The notes under the pieces were generated by a model. That model did not search any database and had not been told where the DNA came from. It saw only the letters and a list, made by a program, of their open reading frames with translations. Position numbers and translations under genes: made by a program. DNA of 64,000 nucleotides from an uncultured Gemmatimonadales bacterium (GTDB lineage: Bacteria; Gemmatimonadota; Gemmatimonadetes; Gemmatimonadales; Gemmatimonadaceae): the NCBI GenBank assembly GCA_963793305.1, contig CAWBZV010000002.1:800001-864000 (forward strand), in the 5' to 3' direction. Positions 6,685-27,114 of the stretch are shown here, in pieces. Positions within the stretch are counted from its first letter, which is position 1. Each line of letters opens with the position of its first letter.

Positions 6685-6702
6685 ATATGATACCTATCAT
6701 AT
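6685..6702. promoter_or_regulatory. TetR operator palindrome ATATGATA-CC-TATCATAT
   Basis: Perfect 8-bp inverted repeat between the divergent tetR and membrane-protein genes. Confidence 0.8.
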
Positions 6703-6723
6703 ATTAACTGCCACGGAGGTTTT

Positions 6724-7413
6724 ATGCTCGATGCGATTGACACCATTCTCATTTTCGCCTCGGCCGCCGTCATCCTGGTCGCCATGACGAGACGCCTGCT
6801 CGTTGCGGGCATCGCGGGTGCCTGGTTCGGCCTCGCCATCGTTGCCTCGGCCTCGGGCGCGTTCGATGGCCAGAGGACAGGTCCGCTCGCGCTCTTGTTC
6901 TTCTTCGGTCTCCCCCTGATCCTCGCGGCGCTCGTATGGCAGCGGCCCGCGATTCGAGCGGCGTGGCTCGCGATTCCAATGCCGTTGCTCATTGGGCTCA
7001 ACGTGATTCGCTCGATCGGCTTCATGTTTCTCTTGCTCGCGGCCGACGGGCGGCTCTCTGGCCCGTTCCCGTATAGCGCGGGTGTGGGCGACATCATCAC
7101 TGGTGTCTTCGCGCTCCCCGTCGCGTTCGCCGTCGCACGCGGGACGGCGTCGAGAGCTCGCGTCACGGCGTGGAATGCGTTCGGAATGCTCGACCTCGTT
7201 GCCGCCGTCTCACTCGGCGTCGTGACGCGGCCCGGTTCTGCCGTGCAATTGCTCCACGTCGGTGTCGGCAGTACCGGCATAACGCAACTGCCCTGGTCAC
7301 TCATCCCGACCGCGCTCGTGCCGTTCTTCATCGTGACGCACGCGATCATCTTCGCCCAGCTCCGCGCGCTGGCTCCGCGGCGCGTGCCCACCGCCGCGGC
7401 AGTGCGCGCCTAG
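6724..7413 (+). CDS. Hypothetical multi-pass membrane protein
   Basis: GGAGG RBS; about 7 TM; motifs 'AGVGDIITG', 'WNAFGMLDL', 'PWSLIPT'. Confidence 0.8.
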   Translation: MLDAIDTILIFASAAVILVAMTRRLLVAGIAGAWFGLAIVASASGAFDGQRTGPLALLFFFGLPLILAALVWQRPAIRAAWLAIPMPLLIGLNVIRSIGFMFLLLAADGRLSGPFPYSAGVGDIITGVFALPVAFAVARGTASRARVTAWNAFGMLDLVAAVSLGVVTRPGSAVQLLHVGVGSTGITQLPWSLIPTALVPFFIVTHAIIFAQLRALAPRRVPTAAAVRA

Positions 7414-7467
7414 CACTCCGGCCTTGCGGGCGGCGAGCCCGGTGGTTTTCTTTGGCCTAAACGGTTT

Positions 7468-7809
7468 ATGCCAAAGCCAAAGAACCGACCACCGGAGCTC
7501 GTGCAGGGCACGCTCGACATGCTCGTGCTCAAAGCGCTCACGCGCGAGAGCCTGCACGGCTACGCGGTCGCCGAATGGATTCGCGCGACGTCGCGCGACG
7601 TGCTCCGCGTGCAGGAGGGAGCGCTCTATCCCGCGCTGCATCGGCTCGAGCTCGCGGGGATGCTCACGTCAGAGTGGGCGGTGAGCGACAAAGGACGTCG
7701 CGCCAAGTACTACTCGCTCACCGCCGCGGGGCGGAAGCATCTCGCTGCCGAAGCGCAGTCGTGGCACCAGCTGTCCGGGGCCATCGCGCTCGTGATGCGG
7801 ACGGCGTAA
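7468..7809 (+). CDS. PadR family transcriptional regulator (Acidobacteria-type)
   Basis: GTLDMLVLKAL...HGYAV...GALYPALHRLE...RRAKYYSLT; translationally coupled to the permease. Confidence 0.95.
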   Translation: MPKPKNRPPELVQGTLDMLVLKALTRESLHGYAVAEWIRATSRDVLRVQEGALYPALHRLELAGMLTSEWAVSDKGRRAKYYSLTAAGRKHLAAEAQSWHQLSGAIALVMRTA

Positions 7810-10497: not shown

Positions 10498-11370
10498 CGC
10501 CAACGCGTCACGGAAGCAACGAATTGGCGCGGCAAGCCGACCCGGATAGGTCGAGTGGATGAGCCAGACGGTGAATACGGGTCGAAAGTCCTCGACTTCG
10601 ACGATCCGCACCGCATCCCCGAACGCGCTGCGATCGAGCATTCGAGGGAGCACCATTCCAACGCCATGTCCGCGCGCGATGAGCGACAGTTGCAGTTCGG
10701 CGCCGCCGACTTCGATGCCTGGCACGAGCGCGCGCCCGGTGGCGGCGAATGCGTCACGCAGCACGCGCCGGAACGAACAGCCATCGTGATCGAGCACCCA
10801 TGGGAGCTGCGCCAAATTCTCGAAGCGCACTCGCCCAGGGAGCGCGAGATCCTTGCTAGCGACGATCGCCGCGGGATCAGTGGTGAGCGCCTCGCCCCCG
10901 CGCCCCGCGAGAGGCTGGCGTCCGTCGAGCGTGAGCACGGCCGCGGCGTCGAGCGTGCCGCCGCGCACCGACTGAATCAGCGCTTCGGACCATCCGGTCA
11001 ACGCTCTCAAGTGCAACTGAGGGTAGGTCGCTCGCACGCGATCGACCGGTTCGGCCAGCGCGAGATCGCCGAGTGCGGCGGTGACGCCGACGCGAAGATC
11101 GCCCTGAGGCTCGCCGTCGGGTTCGAGGGCAAGAGTCATGTCGCGCACGGCTTGCACGACGCGGCGTGCCTGATCGTAGGCAGCCCGGCCGGCGGTGGTC
11201 AGCCGCGGCGGCTTCGACCGGCGGTCGAGCAGGGGAGAGCCGAGCGACTGCTCGAGGGACTGGACCCGACGCGTCACGCCCGGTTGCGTGAGGTGCAGCC
11301 GGAGCGCCGCGCCGCCGATTGAGCCGGTCTCGACGACCGCGATGAATGCTTCGAGATCAGGTATGTTCAT
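10186..11370 (-). CDS. LysR family transcriptional regulator (last ~100 codons antisense to the permease, probably a non-conserved extension)
   Basis: N-terminal HTH LEAFIAVVETGSIGGAALRLHLTQPGVTRRVQSLE; substrate-binding domain ends near 10500. Confidence 0.9.
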   Translation of the reverse strand: MNIPDLEAFIAVVETGSIGGAALRLHLTQPGVTRRVQSLEQSLGSPLLDRRSKPPRLTTAGRAAYDQARRVVQAVRDMTLALEPDGEPQGDLRVGVTAALGDLALAEPVDRVRATYPQLHLRALTGWSEALIQSVRGGTLDAAAVLTLDGRQPLAGRGGEALTTDPAAIVASKDLALPGRVRFENLAQLPWVLDHDGCSFRRVLRDAFAATGRALVPGIEVGGAELQLSLIARGHGVGMVLPRMLDRSAFGDAVRIVEVEDFRPVFTVWLIHSTYPGRLAAPIRCFRDALALGLAQREHRVEVGGASRRKVAREDRDAGDHNRNPNHDRRVGRRHQEEELGQHPFQRKPTHETDRDADHREAKPGAEHEPQDIRALGAKSDAEPDLLRALGDEV

Positions 11371-11417
11371 GCGCGCAAAGCATGATTATCGTGACAATAA
11401 TTGATTTGTAGTATAAT
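11369..11417. promoter_or_regulatory. LTTR box (ATGC-N7-GCAT, T-N11-A) and TATAAT -10 for the MFS gene
   Basis: ATGCGCGCAAAGCAT at 11369-11383 overlaps the lysR start; TATAAT at 11412-11417. Confidence 0.65.
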
Positions 11418-11440
11418 GCTACGCCCAGTAGCCTTCGTCC

Positions 11441-12781
11441 ATGAGGTCTAAAGTCATCCTCGTGACGATGGCGACCGTGACCGCCCTCGTCACGCTCGAT
11501 GCGACGATCGTCGCGGTGGCATTGCCGTCGATTGCCCGTGGGCTCCACGCCTCGTTCGCCGACGTTGAGTGGGTGATCGGCAGCTACGTGCTGGCCTTCG
11601 CGTCGCTCATGACGCCCTTCGGCGCACTCGGCGACCATCGGGGCCGAAAGGGCGCGGTGCTCGCCGGTGTGTCCCTCTTCGCCATCGCGTCGCTCCTCTG
11701 TGGCGTGGCGCAGAATGCATCGCTCCTCATCAGCGCACGCGTACTCCAAGGCATCGGCGCGGCGTTCTTGCCGCCCGCGGCGCTCGGCATCATCGGGCAC
11801 ACGTTCCAGGGCGAGGAACGGAACCGCGCGTTCGGCGTGTGGGGCTCGGTCATCGGCCTCGCCGTCGTCGCCGGCCCGGTGATCGGTGGCATCGTCACGT
11901 CGCTCATGGGCTGGCGTTGGACGTTCTTGATCAACCTGCCACTCTGCGTGGTGCTGTGCGTCGCGATCGTGCGATGGGTGCCCGACTCGCGCAACCCGCA
12001 CGCGCGGCGCTACGACATCGGAGGGAGTGTCACATTTTGTGGCGCGCTCTTCTTTCTCACCTGGGCGCTGATCGATCCGCACGATATGGCCGCGCGCATC
12101 GCCGGATCGCTGGTCATGCTCATCGCGTTCGTCGCGATCGAGCGCCGACAGCGCGAGCCGATGCTCGACTTAGGTCTGTTCCGCCGGTCAGACTTCCTCG
12201 GCGCGGTCGCCGCGATGGCCGGATACTCGGCGAGCGCGCAGGTGCTGGTCTATTTCTTTCCGCTCTTTCTCCAGAATGGCATCGGATACTCGCCGCTGAC
12301 GTCCGGCATCGCCATGCTACCGTACGCCATTCCACTCTTCCTCATGCCGCGCGTGGCCGCGCGACTGACCATCCAGCGCGGGAATCGCATGGTCCTGGCG
12401 TCGGGCCTGGCGATCGTGGCGGTCGGTGATCTCCTCATGGCGCTCGCTGCGCCGCGGCTCAGCTATCCGCTCTTCGCGGGCGCGATGTTCGTCTCGGGGC
12501 TAGGCGCCGGTCTCCTGAATGGGGAGACCGCGCAGACCCTGCAGGCCACGATCCCCACGGCGCAAGGCGGAATGGCCGGGGGATTGAGCGCGACGGTTCG
12601 CTTCGCCTCGATCCTCCTGGCGGTGGCGATCCTCGGCGTCTTTTACTCGCACAAGGGCATTCCGTGGGTGATGGCGGCGGCCAGCATCGTCGCCGTTTTG
12701 TCCGCGACGTTCGTTTGGCGGTTGCTGCCGGTTCGCGAGATCTCCGACCGAGCCCAGCTCGAACCCCTCGCCGTGGACTGA
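11441..12781 (+). CDS. MFS drug efflux transporter (DHA2-like)
   Basis: LDATIVAVALPSI, GALGDHRGRK motif A, GPVIGG, WRWTFLINLP. Confidence 0.92.
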   Translation: MRSKVILVTMATVTALVTLDATIVAVALPSIARGLHASFADVEWVIGSYVLAFASLMTPFGALGDHRGRKGAVLAGVSLFAIASLLCGVAQNASLLISARVLQGIGAAFLPPAALGIIGHTFQGEERNRAFGVWGSVIGLAVVAGPVIGGIVTSLMGWRWTFLINLPLCVVLCVAIVRWVPDSRNPHARRYDIGGSVTFCGALFFLTWALIDPHDMAARIAGSLVMLIAFVAIERRQREPMLDLGLFRRSDFLGAVAAMAGYSASAQVLVYFFPLFLQNGIGYSPLTSGIAMLPYAIPLFLMPRVAARLTIQRGNRMVLASGLAIVAVGDLLMALAAPRLSYPLFAGAMFVSGLGAGLLNGETAQTLQATIPTAQGGMAGGLSATVRFASILLAVAILGVFYSHKGIPWVMAAASIVAVLSATFVWRLLPVREISDRAQLEPLAVD

Positions 12782-12804
12782 CGCGGTCGTAGATTTGGCC
12801 CGCT

Positions 12805-13551
12805 ATGAGTGGAGATTTCGCCGGGCGGGTCGCGATTATCACGGGAGCGGCGCGTGGTCTCGGGAGAGCCGTCGCCGTGCGCCTCATCGAGCGTGGCGCT
12901 CGCGTGGCGGTCAATGTGCGGGACGCCGAGCGCGCCGAGGCGGTGGCGAGAGACCTGGGTCCACAGGCGCTTGGCGTTCCGGGTGACATCGCTGCACCCG
13001 GTATACCAGACGCCATCGCCCGTCAGACGCTGGACCACTTCGGCCGGATCGATATTCTCGTCAACAACGCGGCGTTGGCCACGTCCACGCGTTTCGGCGA
13101 CCTGTCCGCCGATGAGTGGCGATTGGCGCTCGAGGTCAACGTGACCGCGCCTTTTCTGCTCACAAAGGCCGTGTTGCCCGCCATGAAGGCGCAGCAGTAC
13201 GGCCGCATTGTGAATATCTCGTCGACCGCGGGAAAGACGGTGAGCACACTCGGGGGAGCGCACTATACCACGTCGAAGGCGGCGCTCCAGGGACTCACGA
13301 GGGCCGCGGCCAAGGAGCTCGGGACGTTCGGGATTACCGTGAACGCCGTGTGCCCCGGGATGATCGACACGGAGCTGACACACGAGTACGCGTCGGACGA
13401 TCTGTTGCAACGTCTGGCGGCGAGTTACCCGGTGCCCCGTCTCGGGACGTCGCGAGAAGTGGCGGACCTGGTATGTTTCGCGGCTTCCGAGGCCGCGGGG
13501 TACATCACGGGTGCCTCGCTCGACATCAACGGCGGCGATCTGATGCTATGA
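12805..13551 (+). CDS. SDR family oxidoreductase (FabG-like)
   Basis: TGAARGLG, NNA, YTTSK catalytic motif. Confidence 0.95.
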   Translation: MSGDFAGRVAIITGAARGLGRAVAVRLIERGARVAVNVRDAERAEAVARDLGPQALGVPGDIAAPGIPDAIARQTLDHFGRIDILVNNAALATSTRFGDLSADEWRLALEVNVTAPFLLTKAVLPAMKAQQYGRIVNISSTAGKTVSTLGGAHYTTSKAALQGLTRAAAKELGTFGITVNAVCPGMIDTELTHEYASDDLLQRLAASYPVPRLGTSREVADLVCFAASEAAGYITGASLDINGGDLML

Positions 13552-14774
13552 AAGTTTTGATCGCGCTCATCGCGGCGCTCGTCATCGGGGCCGCGATCGC
13601 CGCCTCGGGCAATCCGACGCTCCTCGGATTCGCCGACGCGCTCGTGCCGATCGGCACCCTCTGGATCAATGCGATCCGCATGACGGTGATTCCACTCGTC
13701 ATCGCGCTCTTGATCACCGGCGTGGCATTGACATTGGACGTGAAGGCCATTGGCCGCATCGGCAGTCGAACGCTCGTCGTGTTCATCTCGCTACTCGTTG
13801 GCGTGGCCATCGTCTCGGGGATCGTGGCTCCCCTCGTCTTCAGACTCCTCCCGCCCAACCTGGGGAGTCACCCGTCGCTGCCGCCCGGCGCGGCGGAGGC
13901 CGCCGAGCAGCTCGGTGCGGCCGGTGCCACGCCGACGTTCGGCGCGTGGGTCGTCTCCCTCATCCCGCCAAATCCGATCGCCGCGGCGGCGAATGGCGCG
14001 ATCGTGCCGCTCATCATCTTCACGGTGTTGCTCGGACTGGCGATCGCCCACAGTCCGCCCGTTGCGCGCGATCGGCTCGTCGAGTTTTTCGCGGCATTCC
14101 GCAATGCGATGCTGACGCTCGTGCAATGGGTGATCGCGGTCGCTCCGATCGGCGTGTTCGCGCTGCTGCTGCCGCTGGCCGCGAAGAGCGGCGCCGCGCT
14201 GGTCGGCGGCGTTGGGTTCTACATTGTGGTCTACTCCCTCGGGCAGATTCTGGCGACGCTCGTGCTCTATCCCGTCGTGGCCATGTTCGCCCACGTGCCG
14301 ATGCGGCAGTTCGCGCGAGCCGCGTTGCCCGCCCAGCTCATCGCGTTCAGCTCCAGCTCGTCCATCGCCGCGCTCCCCGCGCTCGTCGAGGGCGCCGAGC
14401 GCGACCTCGATCTCCCGGATCGGGTCGCGGGGTTCGTGGTGCCGCTCGCGGTCTCCATGTATAAGATCGCGGCGCCGCTCTCGTGGACCATCGGCGCGCT
14501 GTTTATCGCCTGGTTCTATGGTATCACGTTGCACGTGCGAGAGCTGGGGCTCATCGCGGTGGCGGGTGTGTTCCTCACGTTCGCCGCGCCGGGCGTCCCA
14601 CGGGGCGCGTTTCTCATGCTCACGCCGCTCTTCTTGGCAGTCGGCTTGCCGGCCGAAGGGATCGGGATATTGATCGCGGTAGACACGATCCCCGACTTGT
14701 TCTCGACGGTGTTCAATACAACCGGCAATCTCGCGGCTACCGCCCTTGTGGGAGCTAAAGCCCCAGTTCGCTGA
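13548..14774 (+). CDS. Dicarboxylate/amino acid:cation symporter (DAACS)
   Basis: ATG13548 overlaps the SDR stop; [11 protein letters not shown] serine-rich motif; [12 protein letters not shown]. Confidence 0.9.
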
Positions 14775-15231
14775 GGCCAGGGTGGTTGTCCGGCCGACGG
14801 CCTAACGGCCAGTGGTATTTCCGGTCGGCCTCCTGAATTGGGAGATCGTTGATCGACGCCAGCCGTCGTTGCATGAGGCCATTCTCGTCGAACTCCCAGT
14901 TCTCATTGCCGTACGACCGGAACCAGTGCCCGGAGTCGTCGTGCCACTCGTACGCGAATCGTACGGCGATGCGATTGCCCTCGAAGGCCCAGAGCTCCTT
15001 GATCAGCCGATAGTCCAGCTCCTTGGCCCACTTACGCGCGAGGAACGCGACGATCTCGGCGCGACCATTCAGGAACTCGGCGCGATTTCGCCAGCGCGAG
15101 TCGGAGGTGTAGGCGAGCGATACCTTCTCGGGGTCGCGTGAGTTCCACCCGTCTTCGGCCATACGGACCTTTTGGGTCGCGGTCTCGCGGGTGAACGGCG
15201 GCACGGGTGGCCGCGCTGTTATGGCACTCAT
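14755..15231 (-). CDS. DUF1348 / NTF2-like (SnoaL-fold) protein
   Basis: [28 protein letters not shown]...[13 protein letters not shown]...RRLASIND. Confidence 0.9.
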
Positions 15232-15251
15232 GATCAGTCCGTCTACCAGAT

Positions 15252-15653
15252 ATGAGAAAGCAACGACCGATGCTCGCCGTTCTCGCAATATGCGCTTTCG
15301 TATGGGGAGTGTACATGCTACTCGCGGCGTGGTCGTTTGGCCGAACGGCCCACCGCGTACAGGGACTGATCGTCGATCGTGACAACGCGAATTTCACGGT
15401 GCAGTACATGGTCAACGGTCAGATGCTGCAGTTGACCGAGGCATTGCCAAGCACGAAGGGCATGTCGGGCATGACGAGACAGCAATTGCGGCCCGGTAAC
15501 AGCGTGCCGGTCCTCTACGACCCGGCCCTACCGACGCGAGCGAAATGGGACAGCAATCGCGTGTGGGCCATGCCGGTCGCGATCATGGCGGTCGCTATGA
15601 TCGCTTTCGGCGTCGCAATGTTCCCAAACTTGATGGCGCGTCCCCTACGCTGA
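15252..15653 (+). CDS. DUF3592-like membrane-anchored protein
   Basis: TM, then a beta region with '[10 protein letters not shown]', then a second TM. Confidence 0.6.
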
Positions 15654-15681
15654 CATGTGGGACGCTATAAATTAGTCCGGC

Positions 15682-16353
15682 ATGGGCCGGCTCGCGATCT
15701 ACATGCAGATGCTCTTCCGTTACAAGCCGCAGCGATACTGGAACGACATCCTCTCGGAGTCGTTCGACCTGCGCGGCGTCGGCCACTTCGGCCGGAGCGA
15801 GGCCGAGAATGCGGCGATGTACGCGGAGAAGCGCGCGATCATCGAGCGCGAGCTCGCGCGCTGCAACGTGGCGCTCGGCCCCGACACCCGCGTGCTCGAG
15901 ATCGGGAGCGGCGTCGGATACTGGACGGAGTTCTTGCGGTCGAAGGGTGTGCGTCATTACACGGGAAACGACATCGCCCCGGTGTCGATCGAGACGCTCG
16001 GCGCCCGCTATCCTGATTTCACGTTCGTGCTCGGCGACGCCGGCCAGATAGCGTTGCCGGCCGCGTCGTTCGATCTCGGTTGGATGATCGACGTGACGCA
16101 GCACATCACCGATGACGCCGCGTTCGATCGCGCGATCACGAACGTCTGGCAGGCGCTCCGCCCCGGCGCGACTTTCGTGGTCACATTCTGGGATCCGGCC
16201 ACGAACAAGTACCTGGCGAACAAGTTACGGTTGAACCGCATCGAGAAGCCGCGCGGGCTCGCGGCCTATCGCGCCGTGTTCGGCGCCGGCGCGCAGATTT
16301 CCGACCCGGCGCCATTCAACGACAAGCACCTAGTCGTCGTTCGCAAACCCTAA
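15682..16353 (+). CDS. Class I SAM-dependent methyltransferase
   Basis: VLEIGSGVG motif I, FDLG, LRPGA. Confidence 0.9.
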   Translation: MGRLAIYMQMLFRYKPQRYWNDILSESFDLRGVGHFGRSEAENAAMYAEKRAIIERELARCNVALGPDTRVLEIGSGVGYWTEFLRSKGVRHYTGNDIAPVSIETLGARYPDFTFVLGDAGQIALPAASFDLGWMIDVTQHITDDAAFDRAITNVWQALRPGATFVVTFWDPATNKYLANKLRLNRIEKPRGLAAYRAVFGAGAQISDPAPFNDKHLVVVRKP

Positions 16354-16763
16354 TGGATATTCGCGTCCAGGCGCTGAACTCATCGGATTGGATGGAGCTG
16401 CGCGATGCGCGTCCGGCCGATGAAGTCTCGCTCTACCGCGCGCTCTTTCGCGTCCAGGTCGACGGCCAGGTGCACAACCGTCCGTTCTGGTTCGACCGCT
16501 CTGACCTCGACGAGTTCGCCCACGATCTCGCGTGGCTGGACAAGGCGGTCGGCGGCCGCGCGACCCTCAACCACGCGGGTCGTCCCGAGTACTTGACGGT
16601 CGTGATCGAAGCCTCAGGAACAGCCTACGTCACCGGCGAGCTCTTCGACTTCGACGACCCTGACCAACACGTGCGCTTTCGCCTCCAACAGAGCCGCGCT
16701 TCGCTCCGCACGCTATTGCGCGACGTGCGGACGCTGCTCGATATGCGCGTACCGCCGGGCTGA
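16353..16763 (+). CDS. Hypothetical protein (possible WapI/immunity-like fold)
   Basis: Coupled to the upstream stop (TAATG); 'FWFDRSDLDEFAHDL..L....GRATL' pattern. Family call tentative. Confidence 0.6.
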   Translation: MDIRVQALNSSDWMELRDARPADEVSLYRALFRVQVDGQVHNRPFWFDRSDLDEFAHDLAWLDKAVGGRATLNHAGRPEYLTVVIEASGTAYVTGELFDFDDPDQHVRFRLQQSRASLRTLLRDVRTLLDMRVPPG

Positions 16764-16773
16764 CCTGCTTATA

Positions 16774-16858
16774 CGGAGGGCGAGGGACTCGAACCCCCAA
16801 GCGGCTTTCGCCGCGCCAGTTTTCAAGACTGGTGCAATAGCCATTCTGCCAGCCCTCC
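16774..16858 (-). tRNA. tRNA-Ser (anticodon TGA), CCA not encoded
   Basis: GGAGGGC acceptor stem, CCAGT-CTTGAAA-ACTGG anticodon arm, long variable arm GCGGC-GAAA-GCCGC, TTCGAGT T-loop, G73. Confidence 0.97.
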
Positions 16859-17018
16859 TGACAACGTCACAAGCTATTGGCGCTGTGACGCTTGAGCAAC
16901 TTACTAGCGCGGCACCGCGCGCCGCGTCTTCGGCGAAGTATGACTCGGGCGCGTGCTCAGCGAGAAAGCTGGGGATAAGCAAGCTGGCCTACACTGCGGA
17001 ATGCTATGGGCGCGGGTT

Positions 17019-17151
17019 AACGCTTGGCGTTTCGGCGCGTGGCCACTTGCTCGTGGTAGTGCATACCGATGTCGAGGACGAAATTCGACTCATTTCGGCT
17101 CGACAGGCAACCCCGCGCGAGCGACGCCAATACGAAGAACACGGCCCGTAA
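17019..17151 (+). pseudogene. brnT: BrnT family toxin, 5'-truncated remnant
   Basis: Only the C-terminal half is present: LGVSARGHLLVVVHTDVEDEIRLISARQATPRERRQYEE. The N-terminal FEWD..K...N..KHG motif is absent. Confidence 0.75.
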
Positions 17152-17168
17152 AGTGGCCGTCTGTCGCA

Positions 17169-17345
17169 ATGGCTGACGACGAAATGCGAGACGAGTACGA
17201 TTTCAGCGGCGGCGTACGTGGGAAGTACGCGGCGCGCTACGCGCAGGGCACGAACATAGTCGTGCTCGATCGCGACGTAGCCGAGATCTTTCCGACATCG
17301 CGTCGTTTGGACTATCAGTTGCCGCACTCGTTGTCTCGCTGGTAA
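17169..17345 (+). pseudogene. BrnA-like antitoxin, 3'-truncated
   Basis: MADDEMRDEYDFSGGVRGKYAARYAQGTNIVVLDRDVAEIFPTS, then unrelated sequence; the expected 'AVNxALR' end is missing. Confidence 0.7.
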
Positions 17346-17807
17346 CCGCATGGGCCACCATGTGGCGTCGTGGTCGCGTCTGCATGACGCAGCCGACGCT
17401 CATTCACTTTGGGTTCGATCGAAGCGTGACGAGCGACGGTGTCAATCTGAAGGCGAGGATCTATCTACGCACCTTGCTGTTCAGCAGTGGAAAGCACGGG
17501 AACATTGTTGAGAACATGTACATGCGGGTCCGTCGCGGAGATACGGTCCAGACATTCAATGTCTGGGTTGCCACCGGATGGGACGGAATTCGTCTTTAGA
17601 GAGGGGGAGTATACCCTCGAGATGTGCGCGACACTGTTCCGGGTAAGGCAGCCGATCAAACTACACGAGTCCAAGCTCTCGCTTCGAGTTACGGATGCGA
17701 ACATCATGTCAGACACTCGCGCGGGTTGCTATTTCGATTGGAGTCCAGAGTCGGCACGCTATCATAATCACGTCGAGTCTGCGCCGCGGCCAGCCTTGAG
17801 AGAGTAG
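17291..17807 (+). pseudogene. Hypothetical N-terminal-TM protein, start lost and internally frameshifted (~17566)
   Basis: One frame reads SDIASFGLSVAALVVSLVTAWATMWRRGRVCMTQPT...FNVWV, then continues in another frame as LPPDGTEFVFREGEY...YFDWSPES. Confidence 0.6.
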
Positions 17808-17957
17808 CCGCTGGCAAATTTGGTGGTACTCCGGCCAACCACCCGGAAATGAGTGATATCACTCGACGAGAATCACCCGCGTCTTGCTTGTCGCTATGGC
17901 TGGCACTTGTGTTCGGCGGCTGCCGACGGCGACCGGTCGTCGCACTCCGGTAACCCG

Positions 17958-18581
17958 TCAGACGCGCCGCGGCAGGAGCACCAAGTCGGCCGCTTCCTCA
18001 GCATCTTTGAGGAGCGTCTTGCGCGGCGTGCCTATCCGCGCTCGCATGGTCAAGCCACGAGCAAAATCCGTGACTTGGATCGCGCGCACGACTACCGGAA
18101 AGTCAGGCGGGATGTCTCCCGCACAGATCCCGTCCCGGAAACGGCGCTCCACCAGCGCCGCGGCGCCCGCGACCGCGCTCTGCAGGAACCGCCGAACCTC
18201 AGCGTCGTTCACGAGCGGCGCGACGCATTCCAGAAGGCACCCCCGGGCGGACCCTTTCTCGGTCGCACTTTCGACGGCGTACCTCAGAAAGCCCGCGATC
18301 GAGTCGCGAAGACCCTGTGGCGAGAGGAGCGCCTTCGCGGCTGATGCGCCCTTCCGTTCTGCGTACGCCCTAAGAACGCGCAAGAATATCGCCCGCTTGT
18401 CCCCAAAGACGGCATACAGGCTCGGCCGTCCCACACCCATTCCGGCGACGAGATCGTCAATCGTCACTCCGTCGTAGCCCTTCGACCAGAACACCTGAGT
18501 CGCCTTTTCCAGCGCCCCCGTCTCGTCGAAGCTGCGCGGTCGACCCCGCGGCCTAGCGTTATTTTGAATCATTTGGTTCAA
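17958..18581 (-). CDS. TetR/AcrR family regulator (ComR-like)
   Basis: RGRPRSFDE...FWSKGYDGVTIDDLVAGMGVGRPSLYAVFGDK. Confidence 0.95.
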   Translation of the reverse strand: MNQMIQNNARPRGRPRSFDETGALEKATQVFWSKGYDGVTIDDLVAGMGVGRPSLYAVFGDKRAIFLRVLRAYAERKGASAAKALLSPQGLRDSIAGFLRYAVESATEKGSARGCLLECVAPLVNDAEVRRFLQSAVAGAAALVERRFRDGICAGDIPPDFPVVVRAIQVTDFARGLTMRARIGTPRKTLLKDAEEAADLVLLPRRV

Positions 18582-18632
18582 AACTCATTGACAATGGCCA
18601 TCGCACCAATAATATATAACTGAATAGTTCGA
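18562..18632. promoter_or_regulatory. TetR operator TTTTGAA-N8-TTCAAAA and sigma70-like promoter (TTGACA at 18588, TAATAT at 18610)
   Basis: Inverted repeat at 18562-18583; second AACT-N4-AGTT half-palindrome near 18618-18629. Confidence 0.7.
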
Positions 18633-18699
18633 AATTAGCATGGCACTGGCCTCGCGCGGCCTCACGACTCGACCTTCACCCTTCACCACGGAGACGCCC

Positions 18700-19674
18700 A
18701 TGAAACATTCGATCGCACTCGTCACCGGCACCACCTCCGGGCTCGGTTATGCGGCAGCCAGCATGCTCGCCGCCGAGGGCTGCCGCCAGGTCATCGTCAC
18801 CGGGCGCAGCCTGGCCCGGGTCCAGGAAACGGCCGCTCAGCTCGCGGCTGAGACCAAGACCCAGGTCTTCACGCCGCTGGAGCTGAATCTGAACGCACGG
18901 ACCAGCGTCCAGTCCGCCCTCGCCGAGCTGGTCAAGCGAGGTCGGCCGATCGATTTCCTACTGCTCAATGCAGGGATGGTCGGAGGTAAGAAGCGCGTGC
19001 TCACTGCGGCGGGTATCGAGGAGGATCAGGCCCCGCTCATCGGCCATCATCAACTGACTGTCGGGTTGCTCCGCGCCAACCTGTTGAGCCCCAACGCGCG
19101 GATTGTTATCGCCGGCTCGGAAGCTGCCCGAGGGGACGTCCCTATGTTCAGCTACACCGACGTGGCGGCCTTCGCGGCCAAACACCACCAGGGTGACCGA
19201 ACCGCTGCTGTTGAAGCCCTGGTGCGCAACGGGCCGAACGTGAAGTACGAGCCCAACCGGGCGTATACCGACGCGAAGCTCATTATCGCTTGGTGGGTCG
19301 CGGCGCTGGCGCGCCGGCTACCCTCCGGCATGGCCGTGTACGCTGTCTCGCCCGGTGCGGCGACCGACACCAAGGCGGTGCGAAACGCTGGCCCGGCGTT
19401 GAAGTATCTGTTTATCCCAATCGTGAACCTCATTCCCGGCATGAATCAGACGCCGGAGACCGCGGCCCGTCGGTACCTCCAGGCGTCGGAGTTCGGAACC
19501 GACGTCTCAGGCCAATTCTTCGCCTCGGCGCCGAAGAAGCTCACAGGCCCAATTGAGGCGATGCGCCACCCACACTTTCACGATCGCGCCAACCAGGAAG
19601 CCGCGTGGCAGGCCGTCGTTGAGGTCTCCGGCGTCGACTTGTCTTACCCAGCATCCTTGAGCGCGGTGTCCTGA
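18700..19674 (+). CDS. SDR family oxidoreductase (retinol dehydrogenase/WWOX-like)
   Basis: GGAG RBS before ATG18700; TGTTSGLG, LLNAG, YTDAK. Confidence 0.9.
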   Translation: MKHSIALVTGTTSGLGYAAASMLAAEGCRQVIVTGRSLARVQETAAQLAAETKTQVFTPLELNLNARTSVQSALAELVKRGRPIDFLLLNAGMVGGKKRVLTAAGIEEDQAPLIGHHQLTVGLLRANLLSPNARIVIAGSEAARGDVPMFSYTDVAAFAAKHHQGDRTAAVEALVRNGPNVKYEPNRAYTDAKLIIAWWVAALARRLPSGMAVYAVSPGAATDTKAVRNAGPALKYLFIPIVNLIPGMNQTPETAARRYLQASEFGTDVSGQFFASAPKKLTGPIEAMRHPHFHDRANQEAAWQAVVEVSGVDLSYPASLSAVS

Positions 19675-20361
19675 AGGAGCGCCGGTCGCGGCGAAATGGT
19701 CGCGGTGACCAGAATAAGCATGCGATTGCGGAGCTACGTGGTCGTCCACGGTGTGACCGACCTGGGACCGCCGGTATTCTCTGCGTATGGCACGGCGAGC
19801 GGAAGACGTGCGTTGCTGTGCGTGCTGGTCTGAACCATGATGGCCGAGCATCCTCGGAAACGCCAGAGGCATTCCGAGTCGTGTTCGACAGTCTTCGCCT
19901 GATGCAGATTCGCTGACGCGGCGAGTTCATGTGCTCTCATGATGGGGCTCGCGTGCTGTAAGTGGCGATACGGAACCGCGAGAAGGCGACAGGATAGACG
20001 CTCGGTCCAACCGGTCTATCGAGTAGTCCGCACGCGCGGCGCATGAACGCCGAGGACATCGCGTCAGCACAAGGTCAGCGTCGGACTATCGGTCTCCAGA
20101 TATCCGATTATGCGCCGGCAAGGAGCTTGAGCAGTTGGATGACCGCTGGCATGTACGCCGACCGATAGTGGAAGCTGCGCTTATCCAGCTTGTCAACGAG
20201 GCGACACACCACTTTCTCGATCTTCACCCGAGCGTAATCGGTGACACCGGAGGGGCACAATCTCGCCCACCGCGCGATCGCCGGCGACGAGTCGCCTGCT
20301 CGCGACCCTAGATTGACCACTTCAGGCTTGCCTTCCGATCTCGCATGACGATCTTGCTTGC

Positions 20362-21114
20362 GTGAGACGCTGGATCTATTTGCCGGCCGGCGGCCGAATG
20401 GTCGCGGTTGCGTGGGGGCTCGGGCTGCTCATCTTTCCCATCCTGAGCGCACTGGCGGCGCCGCATATCGAGCGATTGGACCTCCCGGAGCATCCCGGAG
20501 GCGTCGTCCAGTCACTTGTCCTCCTGATGATCGGCCTCGTGGCCAATGGCGCGCTGTTCTTCATTCACATTAACGGCGCGTTCCTGACGTGGCGAACTGC
20601 CGCGCGGCCATTCCTGGTCACCCTGTTCATGCTGCAACTGTGGTGCGGCATCGTCGTTGGCATCTGGCTAATGTGGAACGGCACTGTTGCGCTCGCCGCG
20701 CTCAACGGCCGACCCATTGATGGTCCACTGACCGCCGCGTGCGCGGTCGCTGCGGTTGGCGCGCTCTTGGCGCTTCTCTTGGTATCCGAGTTCTGGAAAG
20801 ATCAGGATGACGATGTCGTCAAGGTGCGCGAAGCTCGGACGAAGGCGCTTGCACTCTATCCCGCCGTTTCGGCGGGAAAGAGCAGCGCCGAAGAGCGGGA
20901 CCGGTTTGTCCAGTTGCTGAAGACATTGAACGAAGAAGCCAAGGCGCTCGAGGCCAGGTTGACGGAGCCGGATCGAACGCTGGCTGGCAAGTGGCGTAAG
21001 GCGGCCAAGCGCTTGTACGACGCGGCATATGGGTATGAAGCGAGCAAGCCATTCACGGAGACGAGCGCAACGGTGGCCGAGGACGAACGACTATTGAAGC
21101 TCGACTACCCCTAG
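20362..21114 (+). CDS. Hypothetical 4-TM membrane protein with a charged C-terminal helical domain
   Basis: Four hydrophobic segments in aa ~13-146, then ~105 charged helical residues; first gene of the operon with the GroEL paralog. Start uncertain. Confidence 0.75.
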   Translation: MRRWIYLPAGGRMVAVAWGLGLLIFPILSALAAPHIERLDLPEHPGGVVQSLVLLMIGLVANGALFFIHINGAFLTWRTAARPFLVTLFMLQLWCGIVVGIWLMWNGTVALAALNGRPIDGPLTAACAVAAVGALLALLLVSEFWKDQDDDVVKVREARTKALALYPAVSAGKSSAEERDRFVQLLKTLNEEAKALEARLTEPDRTLAGKWRKAAKRLYDAAYGYEASKPFTETSATVAEDERLLKLDYP

Positions 21115-21125
21115 CTGGATATCGC

Positions 21126-21704
21126 ATGCCTACGCCGGGACAGGAAATCGCACTCCTCGTAGCGGTGCTCGATGATGACAACCCCGCGATATGGGTGCCG
21201 TGGACGAAAGCATTCGACGTGGTCAAGAAGGAGGTTAGCGCCCAATCGCCGCGATACTCCGAGATCCAGCGCGAGGACGTGTTGCTCCGCATGCACCTGG
21301 AGCTCGACGATCCGAACAAGTTGATGGGGCTTCGGGCGGAGGACATGGTCCATCACGTCGGCGTGGTCGTCGATGGCATCAGCGTCGGGTCGAATAAGCA
21401 TCATGCCCAACAGATCACGGACCGATTGGCTCAGTTGTGCGCGCGACTGAAGACCTGCGCAGACGCGTTCTTCCGATCCACCGGGTTTTATCTCTTCGTT
21501 GCCGGTGTGGAGGAAGGTCACCGGGCGTTTGATAACTCTCAGAAGGCGTTTCGCGAGCAACTCGTCGATCGAGCGGGACAACGGCTCGGCATCGAGCCCA
21601 AGGGTTTATTCGCATTGGAGGTCCTCAATGAGGTGGACCTCGTGCACACCATACGGCACGCGACGGAGCTGGCCATGAGGAACTATTCCTTTAGGGCCCG
21701 CTAA
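21126..21704 (+). CDS. Hypothetical soluble alpha/beta protein (192 aa)
   Basis: 11 nt after the upstream stop; its stop overlaps the groL-like ATG (TAATG). No family recognised. Confidence 0.8.
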
Positions 21705-23584
21705 TGGCGGCGAAAGAGATTCTTTTCAGCGGCGATGCCCGGGAGGCGCTCGTCGCGGGCGCCGAGCGTCTCGCGCAGGCGGTATCCGTGACGCTGGGGC
21801 CGAGAGGAGGCTCGGTTGTCATCCAGCAGGCAGGCGGGGCGCAGCCCTTGGTGTCGAGGGATGGCTACACGGTCGCCCGGAATATTACCCTGAATCGCGA
21901 ATCTGATACGGGGGCGGCCATGCTGCGCGACGTGGCGGAGCACACGGCCAAACAAGTCGGCAATGGAACATCGACCGCCATCGTGCTCGCGCGGGCGATC
22001 TATCGCGAGGGCATCAAGCGTGTGGCCGCCGGTATCGATCCCATGGCCCTCAAGCGTGGTATCGATCGTGCCATTGCCACGATCGTTGACCAGCTCAGAA
22101 AGGCGAGCGTGAAGGTCACCATCTATTCATCGGCGCAGGCCGCGCTGGCGGAAGTCGAGCACGAGACCGGCCGCACGACGCTCGCCAACGTCGCGCGGAC
22201 GTGCGTGGGCTCTGACGTTGCCGACCGGTTGCCGCCAGCGTGGTCGAATCACGACGTGCGCGCGCGCACATTCCTGCCGGTCGACTACTGGCGTCAGGGA
22301 CGCGCGGCCAGTCTGTCGGTCGATACGCTCGCGCAGATCGCCGACCGCGTCGATGATGAGGGACGGCGCCGGGCCGACGAAGCCCACTCGCGATATTCGA
22401 GGCTCTCCGATGTCGCCACGGTGGCCGCGAGTGGTGACGCGGGCGTGGGCGCGATCATCGCCCAGGCGTTCGCGGCGGTCGGGCGAGATGGGGTCATCAC
22501 TATCGTCGACGGACGGGGAGCCGATACCTCAGTGGAAATCGTTCCCGGCATGAGCTTCGACCGGGGCTATCTGTCGCCGTACTTCGTGACCGACACCGCG
22601 AAAGCGGAAGCGGTTCTCGAGGACAGTTACATTCTCCTCTACGACAAGAAAATCTCGTCGATGAAGGATCTGCTCCCGATCCTCGAGAAAATCGCGCAGG
22701 CCGGCAAGCCGCTGCTCATCATCGCCGAGGATGTCGAGGGTGAGGCGCTGGCGACGCTCGTCGTCAATACGATTCGCGGCATCCTGCGTGTGACCGCGGT
22801 CAAAGCGCCGGGGTTCGGCGATCGCCGCACGGCGATGCTGCAGGATATCGCAGTGCTCACGAACGGACGGGTCATCTCCGAGGAAGTCGGCCTCAAGCTC
22901 GAGAACGCGGCCTTGGACGATCTCGGCAAGGCCAAGCGTATCGTCGTCGGCACGGAGAGCACGACAATCATCGAAGATGGACACGAGCGCGGCGATCTCG
23001 TGTCCGGCCGCATCAAGGAGATCCGTTCGGCAATCGACAAGTCGACCTCCGATTACGACAAGGAGAAGCTCCAGGAGCGGCTGGCGAAGCTCGCCGGCGG
23101 CGTGGCGGTGATTAATGTCGGCGCCACGACCGAGTCGGAGATGAAGGAGAAGAAGGCCCGGGTCGAGGACGCGTTGCATGCAACGCGCGCCGCGGTCGAA
23201 GAGGGTATCGTTCCCGGTGGTGGCGTCGCGTTGATTCGCGTGCAGCCGATGCTCACCACGTTCCGGTCGGGCGATGCCGACGAGCAGGCAGGCGTCGAGA
23301 TCGTGCGTGACGCGATCGAGGAGCCCATCCGCGTCATTATGCGAAATGCGGGCGGTGAGGGCTCGATCGTCGTCCAGAAGGTGCGCGAGTCGGACGATGA
23401 CGCGTTCGGTTACAACGCCCTGACCGATACGTACGAGAACCTGATCAGGGCCGGTGTCGTCGATGCGACCAAGGTAACGCGGACGGCATTGCAGAACGCC
23501 GCGTCGCTGTCGGGGCTGCTGTTGACCACGAACGCGCTGGTGGTCGACCTGGCGTACCAGCCCGCCGATGTCGGAGCGACCTGA
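21704..23584 (+). CDS. groL: Divergent GroEL/Cpn60 paralog with a ~90-aa insertion and an altered ATP-binding motif
   Basis: [92 protein letters not shown] replaces GDGTTT. Confidence 0.93.
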
Positions 23585-23586
23585 CA

Positions 23587-25080
23587 ATGCGCTCCAAGAT
23601 ATTCCTACTGATGGTGGCGGTCATCGGGTGCGCTGGCGGCGGCACGGCCCCGAAGTCCCCCTCGATTGCGCTGTCCCTCGTCGGCAGCAATCAGACGGAC
23701 ACGGTCAACACGACGCTGCTGCAAGCGCTGGTGGCGCGTACGCTCCCCCACGAGCTCGTGCAGTTTCAGTCCCTGCCCGATAGCGGCAATCTGTATGGGG
23801 CATTCGTCGAGTCGCTCGCGATACCCGACGCGACGACCCTCATCGCCGACTCGACGGACGCCAACGGGCAAGCGGCTGTCGTCGTCTACCTCGGCCAGAT
23901 AGCCGGACGGGCGCGCATCATCGTCACCGTGCCCAAATATGGTATTGCCGATACGGCCACGTTCACTGTCCAAGCCGGACACCTGGTCGCCATCACGGGC
24001 ATCCCGGCCGATACCACGGTGTACTCCGGGGGTAAGTTTGTGCTGCAGGGCACTCCGGTCGATCGCTTCGGGAATCGACGGACGGATCCCATCTCGTTCC
24101 ACGTCTTGTCCGGTCCGGCCACGCTCTCGGCGGATACCGTGACGGCCACCGCGCTGGGGTTTGCGTACGTCGCGACGACGTCAGGGTCGGTGGCCGATAC
24201 GACATTCATCTCGGTCGTCCCCACCGGGCGCATCGCGGTGTCGCGCAGCCCGTACATTCACATTTTCAATCTCGATGGCACGGACTCGGTGTCCATCCTG
24301 CCGAACATTGGTGGGGTCGGCAACGTGCGTTGGGCTCCGGATGGGAAGTCGCTCGTGTACGATGGGATGTCCGGATGCTCGATCACGGCGATCGGCAACA
24401 ACGCGCCGATCGCCGTCGCGAATCTCAGTGGTGGCGCGGCCGCGCTCCAACTCCCGACATTCTATTACGCGTACTATCCGCAATACGCGCGCGACGGCTC
24501 ACGCATCTACTTCACGATGCTCAATCCCAACGGCCAATTCTGGGAAGGCGATCCCAAGACGCTCGCCATCGATTCGCTCGGTCTCGCGCCGGACCAGGAC
24601 TACGCACCTTCGCCCTCGCCCGACGGATCACAGCTCGCGTATTTCCACGCGACATTGAACGTTACGGGCGTCCTCCGCGTCCTCACCCTGAGCACCAGTG
24701 CGGTGACCGATCTGGGTGTCCCCGCCAATCAACCCGTGTGGTCGCCCGTGTCGAATCAGATCGCGTACGTGGCGGCGGGCACCTGCCAAGGCCAAATCCA
24801 TATCATCAATTCCGACGGCTCCGGCGATCGCCGGCTCTCGCCGAACACGTACAACAGCGGCTTCGACTGGTCGCCCGACGGCGCGTGGATCGTCGCGCTC
24901 AATTCGGTGACGGGAAAGATCGACGTGATAAACGTCGCCTCGGGGCAGGCCCTGCCGCTGACGTTCACGTCGGGATTCAGCTCGCCGGCTTGGTTACCGA
25001 CTACTCCAGCCCCGAGACAAGATACAGCTCCGAAAGAAACCGGGCATAGCCGTACACGTACGATCGGCCATCGGCGCTGA
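23587..25080 (+). CDS. Lipoprotein with Ig-like domains and a TolB-like (PD40/WD40) beta-propeller
   Basis: Lipobox VIG-C15; TDANGQA (Big_1-like); repeated WAPDG/SPDG/WSPDG. Confidence 0.85.
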   Translation: MRSKIFLLMVAVIGCAGGGTAPKSPSIALSLVGSNQTDTVNTTLLQALVARTLPHELVQFQSLPDSGNLYGAFVESLAIPDATTLIADSTDANGQAAVVVYLGQIAGRARIIVTVPKYGIADTATFTVQAGHLVAITGIPADTTVYSGGKFVLQGTPVDRFGNRRTDPISFHVLSGPATLSADTVTATALGFAYVATTSGSVADTTFISVVPTGRIAVSRSPYIHIFNLDGTDSVSILPNIGGVGNVRWAPDGKSLVYDGMSGCSITAIGNNAPIAVANLSGGAAALQLPTFYYAYYPQYARDGSRIYFTMLNPNGQFWEGDPKTLAIDSLGLAPDQDYAPSPSPDGSQLAYFHATLNVTGVLRVLTLSTSAVTDLGVPANQPVWSPVSNQIAYVAAGTCQGQIHIINSDGSGDRRLSPNTYNSGFDWSPDGAWIVALNSVTGKIDVINVASGQALPLTFTSGFSSPAWLPTTPAPRQDTAPKETGHSRTRTIGHRR

Positions 25081-26999
25081 ACAAAATATGCGAGATGGGC
25101 CCGAGACCGGTCATGTCGGTCGGGCTCACCGCGCGGAACGGTTCGCGTTGCCCCGTGAGCACGTTGACACGGTACACCATGACCGGTGCTTGCTTCGCCT
25201 GATACGCGTAGATGAAGCGTGGGTCGGCGGTCCACTCGATTGTCTCGCCGGGCAGGAGACCGGGGATCGCGCGTGGCGCACTGCCGTCGAGTGGGTAGAT
25301 CGAGCCTGCGCCCGCAATGGATTTGCCGTCGGGCGATGGCTCGCACGATGACACGCCGTCCGGCGTCACGGGACGCGGCGCGCCGGCGTCGATGCTTTGA
25401 ATGAAGCAGCGGATCGCATGTCCAGGCTGAGTGGCGGGGAAGACGATCTGCTTGCCGTCAGGAAGCCAGTGGGCGCCGTGCCAATATTGTTGGACGTCGC
25501 CGCGCGGGAGGCGCTTGGCGGCGCCAGCGCCGGTGGGCAGCACCATGAGTTGAGTCGATGCGACGACCGTGGTCGCCCATTTCCCATCGGGTGAGAGGTC
25601 GCCAGCCAGCCCGTCTCCCAGTGGAATCGGGGACGCGGCGCGAAGGTCGCGCATGCCGACAATGTAGTTCGGCCCACTTTGCTCGCTCTGTTCGCTGAAC
25701 AAGACGGTGTTGCCGTCGGCGGAGAGACCGACGGGGAGCGACCAGTCGAGCCACGAGAACGTCGCGTTCGCTGGTCGCGCCAGGCGCCAGGGCCAGCATC
25801 CCCACGCGACAGTCATCGCGCGTGAGCAAGACGCGGCCGTCGGCGGCAACGTCCTGCAAGGTCACGCCACCAGGTGCGCGGTAGAGGAGACGCAGGTGGC
25901 CACGAAGGTCGACCGCGTAGAGATGGCGTTCGACACCGGACTCCGTGGCGGTGAACCACACGTTGGATCCGTCCGGAGACCACGCGAGCCCCTGGGCGCT
26001 TCCCCAGCCGCGAGAGAGGACGGTTCGATGCCCCGAGAGATCGACGACGGCGACGACGCCGTGATCGTCCGGCGCGGCCTCGTGGTCGAGGAAGGCGATC
26101 CGGTCGCCTCTCGGTGATACGCGCGGATGGCTGATCCAGCCCAACGTCTCGTACAGCGCGTGGCCGACGGGGAACTCGAGGCGCTGTTTGCCGGCGACGC
26201 TGTGAACGATCGCCAGCGTCTTCGCGTCAGGCGCATAGTCGGCCCATTCGACATCCTCGGCGATCTGTCGAGGCGACCCGCCGCCCAGCGACACTTGGCC
26301 GAGGGTGCCGCGGAGCGTCAACAAGAAGCGGGGGGCGGCTGATTGGAGGACAGCGACCGCACCGGAGGGGGCCACGGCGAGTAGGTCCGTGCCGTGCAAC
26401 CCCAAGCTGCGAGCGCCCGGGATCTTGGTGTCGGTCGAGTAGATCTCGATCGGACCGCCATCCCAGGCCGCGGAGTAGAGCACGTTGCGGCCGTCCGGGG
26501 CGAAGCGGGCCGAGTAGATCGTGCCGCGCTGGACAGTCAGGCGCTGGAAGTTTGGCGGCTCTTTCCGGGTCGCTCGGTATCCCAAGAATGCGCCGAGTCC
26601 GAGACAGCATGCGGCGACCGCTACTAAGACCGGGATCCGATTCGGGATCGGGGATCTGGAAGGCGGCGCCGTCGGGCTGTCGAGTTTCGCGACAAATCGG
26701 TAGCCCCGGCGCGGCACCGTCTCGATGTAGGACGGATTCTCGGCCGAGTCGCCAAGGGCCGACCGCAGCTTACCGACCGCGACGTTCACGGCGTGGTCGA
26801 AGTCGCCGAAGCTCTCGCGCGGCCAGATCCGGGTCTGAAGCTCCTCGCGCGTGACCAGGTCGCCAGGGCGCTCCAACAGGACCTGGAGGACCTTGAACGG
26901 CTGATCCTGGAGCTTGATGCGCTCGCCGGCTTTCCGGACCTCTCCGGCGTGGAGATCGGCCTCGAATGGGCCGAATCGGATGCTCCCGTTCTGTGTCAT
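25001..26999 (-). CDS. CadC-like winged-helix + TM + PD40 beta-propeller protein, +1 frameshift at ~25760
   Basis: KLQDQPFKVLQVLLERPG...IETVPRRGYRF OmpR/PhoB-type wHTH; TM; SPDG repeats. Frame changes at CGC GAC [G] TTC TCG TGG. Confidence 0.88.
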
Positions 27000-27114
27000 C
27001 CCTTGGCAAATCTACAGGAGATCTCCCTCTCCCGCGGGTCTACACAGCGGCTAGGTCCCGTGAATTGAGACCGCGGGCTCTCCGAGGCAAAGGTAAGAAA
27101 AAAAGGAGAAACCT

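Follow-up and report, generated by a model that had tools for sequence, protein, structure and literature searches.

Passages of a previous survey (PMC5406781) indicate that groEL stands without a neighboring groES in 770 of 4,861 genomes, and excerpts from several reports describe stand-alone GroEL paralogs, among them GroEL2 of Myxococcus xanthus, Cpn60.1 of mycobacteria and GroEL2 of cyanobacteria (PMC3578752, PMC5406781, PMC13673040, PMC5904260). Another arrangement is outlined in extracts on the toxin-antitoxin-chaperone (TAC) systems HigBAC and CmdTAC, where a chaperone stabilizes the middle protein, and phage structural proteins draw the chaperone off, freeing the effector. We show herein that positions 20398-23584 of a 64,000-nt stretch of DNA from an uncultured Gemmatimonadales bacterium (contig CAWBZV010000002.1; the whole stretch is referred to below as the window) constitute a copy of a conserved cassette of three tightly coupled genes, and that this cassette is a rare accessory element of soil Gemmatimonadota. 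Its genes, A, B and C, encode a protein with four transmembrane (TM) segments, a protein of a new family and a GroEL paralog, respectively, and are followed by a fourth gene, D. The paralog carries an insertion of ~90 residues, a feature that a preliminary description of the locus did not mention. The source genome (G000) is a metagenome-assembled genome (MAG), 92% complete and in 26 contigs.

The order A-B-C is kept in all five loci in which the surroundings of B could be read (the window, L009, L010, L013 and L060), and the genes at these loci overlap or are separated by gaps of about 20 nt or less. In the window, direct reading of the junctions gives TAG, 11 nt and ATG between A and B, a TAATG overlap between B and C, and TGA, 2 nt and ATG between C and D. 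The four co-oriented genes and the spacing reported in the preliminary description were thus borne out by both the list of open reading frames (ORFs) and the junctions. A, B and the insertion in C are each homologous across loci, with identities between distant lineages of 18-31% for B and 26-31% for A. The homolog of A directly upstream of B is 77% identical in L009, is recognized with E-values of 7e-6 in L010 and 4e-6 in L013, and is 31% identical (E 1e-24) in L060 of genome G507. The insertions share the motif LP-x(~12)-LP-x2-[FY]W; the comparison of L010 with L013 gave an E-value of 6e-5 and that of the window with L010 one of 0.02, and two close relatives of the window insertion are 95% and 76% identical to it. 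One question raised by the preliminary description was whether the two upstream genes accompany homologs of this GroEL elsewhere, and insertion-bearing relatives were found with both genes in 5/5 readable loci. Two other candidates, L011 and L012 (36% over 52 residues, E 3e-4), were rejected as chance matches; they belong to a low-GC glycosyltransferase-type cluster with no GroEL.

With 695.9 bits, C scores above the cut-off of the GroEL equivalog model TIGR02348 (582.1), which matches it in two pieces, 1-139 and 140-523, flanking the insertion. In phmmer searches of GroELs in the Protein Data Bank (PDB), alignments covered residues 3-136 and 233-625 of C, the latter matching residues 142-533 of 1aon_A, and ~96 residues of C stand in place of ~6 GroEL residues. 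The insertion adjoins helix F, at the crossing from the equatorial to the intermediate domain, and measures ~90-120 residues across the cassette GroELs. It precedes helix F in the window clade and in L013 but follows it in L010 and G507, a distribution that fits an ancestral insert between duplicated copies of helix F, of which a different copy would have been kept in each lineage. The insertion is predicted at low confidence to be helical; this secondary structure comes from an AlphaFold2 (AF2) model of C that was built on a 7-row alignment and is unusable as a whole (predicted local distance difference test (pLDDT), 41.4). An intein was considered and rejected, as no splice-junction residues were seen and the insertion is conserved as protein. 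The preliminary description regarded this GroEL as divergent. However, C has not diverged far, being 65% identical to the GroEL encoded on contig C5 of its own genome, and it is the insertion that marks it.

The nucleotide-site motif of C reads GNGTST in the window, with Asn at residue 87 in place of Asp, which in GDGTTT we take to be a residue of the GroEL nucleotide site. Asp87 is kept as GDGTST in P0005 and P0022 (95% and 80% identical to C, respectively), and as GDGTTT in L010, L013 and G507. Moreover, a single contig of X1, a run that may represent the sample of origin of the assembly, spans 19686-22186 with 4 differences, one of which, A>G at 21962, gives Asp. On this comparison, Asn87 is a variant peculiar to the G000 assembly and not a family trait. 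With Asp87 present in all relatives as well as in the near-identical contig, there is no support for a repurposed ATPase that has lost its activity. The apical residues that presumably bind GroES and substrate (Y199, S201, Y203, F204, L234, L237, L259, V263 and V264) occupy columns that are invariant or nearly so in 28 GroELs, and the apical segments of C are intact, including EALATLVVN. A Gly-Gly-Met (GGM) C-terminal tail is absent from C; a GGM-like tail is retained in the cassette GroELs of L010 and G507.

No groES lies beside C, the only Cpn10 matches of the genome being on contigs C5 and C21. Each of these contigs carries a canonical groES-groEL pair, so C is not the sole groL of the genome, a matter on which the preliminary description had advised a check, and two host groES genes are at its disposal. 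As that description had also noted, the controlling inverted repeat of chaperone expression (CIRCE) is absent here: none was found at ≤3 mismatches anywhere in the window, and one with 1 mismatch lies upstream of groES on contig C21. A scan of 19600-25500 returned 0 sigma-70-like promoter sites and 2 terminator-like sites, the latter below the count in shuffled sequence. The groEL on contig C21 (23318-24896; L002, L004, L006) is split between two frames that switch near residue 183, either through a frameshift or through an error of MAG assembly; its ortholog L030 in the congener G436 is intact. Another, more divergent extra GroEL of 540-541 aa, with neither a GGM tail nor an insertion, was seen in two genomes of the family, G431 (L032) and G450 (L033), where it scores 735-738 bits and is 50-51% identical to C.

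The chaperonin body of C appears to have a composite history. Over the C-terminal 377 columns, the window clade nests in a genus-specific second GroEL lineage (the copy on contig C21 of G000 and L030 of G436) with a support of 98 in the Shimodaira-Hasegawa-like approximate likelihood ratio test (SH-aLRT), and C is 81% identical to the C21 copy across 336 C-terminal aligned residues. Its N-terminal 135 residues are 44-56% identical to all other GroELs compared, housekeeping and distant cassette forms alike, and lie on a branch of 2.15 changes per site; the N-terminal parts of L010 and L013 are 74-76% identical to ordinary GroELs. The C-terminal part of C agrees with the H2-type copy at 57% of fourfold-degenerate sites (66/116) and the N-terminal part at 41% (19/46), 37% being the chance level; this suggests a mosaic origin of C, the sample being too small to serve as proof. 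A single clade for the five insert-bearing GroELs was not rejected (approximately unbiased (AU) test, p 0.64), a result that is no proof of such a clade. Since the chaperonin body of each cassette GroEL resembles the GroEL of its own host, we take the insert to have been kept while the rest of the gene recombined with resident copies of groEL. Recent conversion with a resident groEL was examined and rejected, there being no near-identical tract; the longest exact match is 48-50 nt, and identity per 90-nt window is 80-91%.

The frames of A, B and C are intact, and all ratios of nonsynonymous to synonymous change (dN/dS) are below 1. In the one pair of sequences compared, the window and L009, B changes fastest, with a dN/dS of 0.72, and A has a ratio of 0.27; within C it is 0.19 for the N-terminal part, 0.27 for the insertion and 0.17 for the C-terminal part. 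One could suppose from the nesting of the C-terminal two thirds of C with the second GroEL of the genome that C is a spare duplicate adrift, with A, B and D as unrelated neighbors and no joint function, and Asn87 together with the raised dN/dS of C (0.17-0.27) could suggest relaxed constraint. This is very improbable, as distant lineages carry the same three genes with the insert in the same position, and the conserved synteny already contradicts it; the intact frames and the dN/dS below 1 also weigh against it.

B has no library match in Pfam, NCBIfam, PADLOC or PHROGs, and no usable match in the ESM Atlas. Its only close relative among 5.8 billion clustered proteins is P0002 (63% identical), and 8 relatives, all of 179-204 aa, were found among 1.84 billion representatives. 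The alignment shows conservation of D16, P20, W23, W26, G79, D83, C105 and R190. An AF2 model from 10 sequences (pLDDT, 89.7; predicted template modeling score, 0.87) shows a three-layer alpha/beta sandwich in which strands alternate with helices. The best VIA match is a Lokiarchaeal Rag-like GTPase (8yl2_A; Z 10.5, root-mean-square deviation 3.5 over 154 residues), and the top Foldseek matches are Rab7/Arf proteins (E 3e-4, TM-score about 0.5); SGNH esterases and type II dehydroquinases are nearly as close (Z 8-9), and only the generic fold class is established for that reason. B resembles the small Ras/Arf/Rag GTPases in strand order and in the three-layer sandwich across 154-160 of its 192 residues, and a hydrophobic strand ending in Asp (VGVVVDG) stands at the place of Walker B. 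On the contrary, the P-loop GxxxxGK[ST] is replaced by VLDGxxPxxWxPW; neither the P-loop nor NKxD is present in any of the 11 aligned B proteins, and no GTPase was found by sequence searches with B.

The position before groEL that groES usually fills is taken by B, which is translationally coupled to C through the TAATG overlap and accompanies the insertion-bearing GroEL in all five loci; in the alignment and the model, its conserved D16, P20, W23, W26, G79 and D83 cluster at the nucleotide-binding place of GTPases. B might therefore be a new co-chaperonin or a nucleotide-independent regulator that replaces GroES and acts on the insertion or the apical domains, with A only as an anchor. We consider this quite improbable. 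A GroES-like identity was rejected, because an alternating strand-helix sandwich is not a beta-barrel with a mobile loop, and B gave no match to Cpn10 (PF00166); the preliminary description had likewise called the 192-aa protein in the groES slot unrelated. Host GroES should still fit C, whose GroES-binding apical residues are preserved, and the fast evolution of B is unlike that of a core co-chaperone. On its predicted fold, B is neither a GroES analog nor a demonstrable GTPase. Prediction of a complex between C (28-row alignment) and B (10-row alignment) scored 0.00 in both runs, which were made without controls and gave a verdict of "no answer".

A contains four hydrophobic segments on the Kyte-Doolittle scale, in agreement with the four-TM protein of the preliminary description, and a polar tail of ~110 residues, which would be cytoplasmic judging from the Arg-rich loop between TM2 and TM3. 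Met13 is where the database proteins P0003 and P0004 start, and was called the probable start of A. No match to A was found in Pfam, NCBIfam, PADLOC or PHROGs; its database relatives include one close protein (77% identical), and two ESM Atlas matches at 0.76 fall under the useful level. The coordinates of the genes, of the features around them and of the other loci are given in Table 1.

Table 1. Features of the window and of the other cassette loci (positions are those of the window)
Feature	Position	Strand	Remarks
tRNA-Ser(tga)	16774-16858	-	ARAGORN; left edge of the region differing from G436
Variable island	16866-24998	.	~8.1 kb: BrnT remnant, TetR regulator, SDR, A, B, C, D
BrnT toxin remnant	16885-17151		Pfam search of neighbors
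ORF A	20362-21114	+	250 aa from GTG; 238 aa from Met13 (20398)
Gene A	20398-21114	+	238 aa; four TM segments, then a ~110-aa helical tail
Gene B (ORF B)	21126-21704	+	192 aa; new family, three-layer alpha/beta fold, no P-loop
Gene C (ORF C)	21704-23584	+	626-aa GroEL paralog; no groES, no CIRCE, no GGM tail
Codon 87 of C	21962-21964	+	AAC (Asn) where GroELs carry Asp
Insertion in C	22112-22399	+	Residues 137-232; replaces ~6 residues between GroEL ~136 and ~141
Gene D (ORF D)	23587-25080	+	497 aa; lipoprotein with Ig-like repeats and a PD40/TolB-type beta-propeller
L009			2.7-kb metagenome contig; A and C cut by the contig ends
L010			22.6-kb metagenome contig; 639-aa GroEL
L013			Gemmatimonadales MAG chromosome (G401); 645-aa GroEL
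L060			Genome G507; 666-aa GroEL

The cassette is seldom met with. In a census of the family with the GroEL model, a match split at 139/140 within one frame was found only in G000, 1 of 101 genomes; the sample included G419, G157 and G420 (flagged as unpublished), each with an unsplit GroEL. As a single query, B was found only in G000 among 401 genomes sampled across the phylum. A profile search, in which 8 candidates per genome were scored and divergent copies could be missed, returned G000 and one marginal match in G377 (E 0.003 over 41 positions, with an internal TGA), which was dropped. Around G401, B occurs in 2 of 71 genomes of its family, a match in G503 (E 4e-4) that runs antisense to a histidine-kinase gene having been rejected, and the same 2 were recovered among 151 genomes of the order.

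In the window, the cassette sits in a variable island next to a tRNA-Ser gene. Two blocks of the window, 6000-16865 and 24999-27100, have collinear counterparts (92-94% identical) on contig C45 of the congener G436, which carries ~4.7 kb of different sequence in the interval and lacks the cassette at the syntenic site. Matches of the island range in G436 are confined to those of the GroEL body with its own groEL genes. The tRNA-Ser gene and the decayed toxin-antitoxin pair placed nearby by the preliminary description were both recovered, the latter as a BrnT remnant. A search for an integrase or a flanking direct repeat at the island found none, the repeats seen being short, at chance level and without an att-like pair. 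Window positions 16829-16876, comprising the 5' part of tRNA-Ser and upstream bases, recur as a 47-nt copy (94% identical) at C45:155858-155904 of G436, ~450 bp from the tRNA, which hints at past integration there. The BrnT remnant region (16885-17350) and window positions ~17138-17306, 17860-17933 and 19751-19895 recur at C73:302400-303613 of G436 with 83-94% identity, and behave as dispersed, mobile sequence.

Defence-type neighbors were found in two of the four readable contexts (G507 and G401), a count that is suggestive and carries no statistic. In G401, the cassette (L013) lies in a stretch of lower GC content (55-62% vs 63-72%), with an IS5 transposase, a Cas4-like nuclease (PADLOC Aga_Cas4-like, E 1e-21) and a trio of vWA, kinase and PP2C genes as neighbors. 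The trio occupies 12768-16238 of the minus strand of L013 as a row of PP2C phosphatase, kinase-like and vWA genes next to the cassette, and resembles the TerY-type vWA/kinase/phosphatase triad. In G507, the cassette has an nSTAND1 NTPase on one side and, on the other, a NOV_C protein and a fragment from the N-terminal part of Avs2 (E 9e-45). The Avs2-like gene (L060 6533-7426, plus strand) is a 297-aa ORF that corresponds only to positions 73-310 of a profile of ~1500 positions; it extends into the 3' end of the groEL gene of the cassette, and looks truncated by insertion of the cassette.

D begins with MRSKIFLLMVAVIGC, a lipobox-like N-terminus, and goes on into PD40/TolB repeats, consistent with the beta-propeller lipoprotein of the preliminary description. 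It is probably co-transcribed with the cassette in the window. No counterpart lies downstream of C in L010, L013 or L060; the gene after the cassette encodes a response regulator in L010, and is on the opposite strand in L013 and L060. We infer that D is a local passenger and not a conserved member of the cassette, so the earlier guess that it is incidental holds. Its last ~27 codons fall within the conserved flank, the edge of synteny being near 24999, and its C-terminus may have been remodeled when the island formed. At 24999-25080, the end of D overlaps the 3' end of a convergent CadC-like gene, a regulator (Trans_reg_C and PD40) that occupies 25001-26999 of the minus strand. It is divided between two frames that overlap, at 25458-26999 and at 25001-25849, and the longer ORF seems to be out of frame toward its end; the gene probably carries a frameshift or is a pseudogene. 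In L010, the stop of the gene for a 198-aa single-TM protein (8602-9198) overlaps the start of A, and upstream of it (7327-8085) lies the gene for a multi-TM protein of 252 aa; neither protein has a family match, and both may be lineage-specific additions to the cassette.

A co-oriented gene for an exported or membrane protein abuts the cassette in three loci (D in the window, a Big_1/Big_2 protein in L013 and the 198-aa protein in L010). These genes speak for the view that the cassette is a private membrane foldase with no role in conflict, in which the insertion would bind B and the tail of A, place a GroEL ring at the inner membrane, and help to fold or assemble A or such nearby envelope proteins. 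C keeps all canonical features of a foldase, and the closeness of each cassette GroEL to that of its host is as expected if it is partnered with host GroES. In addition, stand-alone GroEL paralogs with special clients are described as common in passages of one study (PMC5406781), and non-GGM tails are tied to novel functions in part of a review (PMC5904260). However, the three abutting genes are not mutually homologous (E 0.086), the module lacks an enzyme or transporter from which a physiological purpose could follow, and its extreme rarity, its absence from the congener and the near-neutral dN/dS of B fit a housekeeping-like role poorly. A private foldase also leaves the purpose of the module unexplained, and we regard it as the main rival to our own reading, a serious, if somewhat unlikely, possibility.

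Our own reading, which we offer tentatively and hold to be possible but still short of probable, is that the cassette is a chaperone-guarded membrane-effector module with the logic of a TAC system. C would be an active chaperonin capped by the GroES of the cell, and the insertion would give it a docking surface of its own, linking it to B and, either directly or via B, to the tail of A. A would be the effector, and B a labile neutralizer or adaptor whose shape is maintained by C. Foreign client proteins arriving in bulk, phage structural proteins for example, would then divert C and free A. Such a TAC-like module would account for the rarity of the cassette, for its setting in an island and near defence genes, for the rapid evolution of the middle gene and for the presence of a small four-TM protein.

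Several observations weigh against this reading. PADLOC-DB 2.0.0 contains 0 families matching A, B, C or D at E-values up to 0.01, and the A and C proteins of G507 likewise matched 0 families in PADLOC; none of the four window proteins has a PHROG match, and no relative of B was found in collections of phages, plasmids and viral contigs. The contexts of the window and L010 hold no defence genes beyond the decayed BrnT. B is confidently modeled as a compact domain up to residue 191, unlike a disordered chaperone-addiction tail, and its rapid change is known from that one pair with L009. C looks like a working chaperonin more than a decayed decoy, its canonical features fit an ordinary folding role equally well, and a 14-mer foldase would be a costly sensor. 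The preliminary description had proposed a defence system with the GroEL as a decoy or sensor, a proposal that finds support in part. The island site, the rarity, the neighbors in two of four contexts and the fast evolution of B speak for defence; the lack of PADLOC, PHROG, phage or plasmid matches speaks against it, and a decayed decoy does not fit C. A defence role is possible for the cassette; its function is something that we infer.

A bolder form of the TAC-like reading, which we think clearly unlikely, would make the cassette a new, chaperonin-based class of abortive infection. An insertion-tagged GroEL ring would hold labile B, and B would restrain the four-TM effector A. GroEL-dependent capsid or other structural proteins of phages, flooding the cell, would compete for the ring, and once B was lost, A would act by collapsing the membrane potential, so that the dependence of phages on GroEL would become the trigger of immunity. 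Repeated gene conversion with the host groEL would meanwhile ensure that the surface by which the sensor binds clients goes on matching the chaperonin that phages require.

GroEL is among the best-studied proteins, and a GroEL lineage with an extra domain by helix F and two partner genes is a ready-made experiment on private chaperonin function. The cassette also exhibits mosaic evolution, the chaperonin body following the GroEL of the host and the insert and partner genes being peculiar to the cassette. Should the cassette prove to serve defence, it would be a new kind of system, and the TAC principle of a chaperone that senses phages would reach beyond SecB-like holdases to the chaperonin on which many phages rely for head assembly. 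If the cassette is instead a membrane-tethered foldase, it would represent a new way to localize protein folding.

Among known systems, RexA/RexB of lambda is an abortive-infection pair made of a sensor and a four-TM effector. The cassette resembles it in having a small four-helix membrane protein beside cytoplasmic partners in an accessory locus; it differs in that the partner is a chaperonin, and the likeness is one of arrangement and not of sequence. In TAC loci the chaperone gene comes last. The cassette likewise consists of three tightly coupled genes with the chaperone last (window, L010, L013 and L060). However, the TAC chaperone is SecB-like whereas C is a GroEL, the TAC toxins HigB and CmdT are enzymes whereas A is a four-TM protein, and B has neither a recognizable antitoxin domain nor a disordered addiction tail; neither A nor B matches known toxin-antitoxin families in Pfam, NCBIfam or PADLOC. 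A full-text literature search found no description of an insertion-bearing GroEL with partners of the A/B type and no chaperonin in a defence system, though either may still be in print. Like the stand-alone GroEL paralogs, C is an extra groEL product beside canonical operons, with no groES, no CIRCE and a non-GGM tail. Unlike them, it has an insertion of ~90-120 residues by helix F, is always preceded by A and B, and is rare and island-borne instead of lineage-wide. An extra groEL without groES is already known, the insertion and the A and B partners appear to be new, and we file C as a specialized GroEL paralog.

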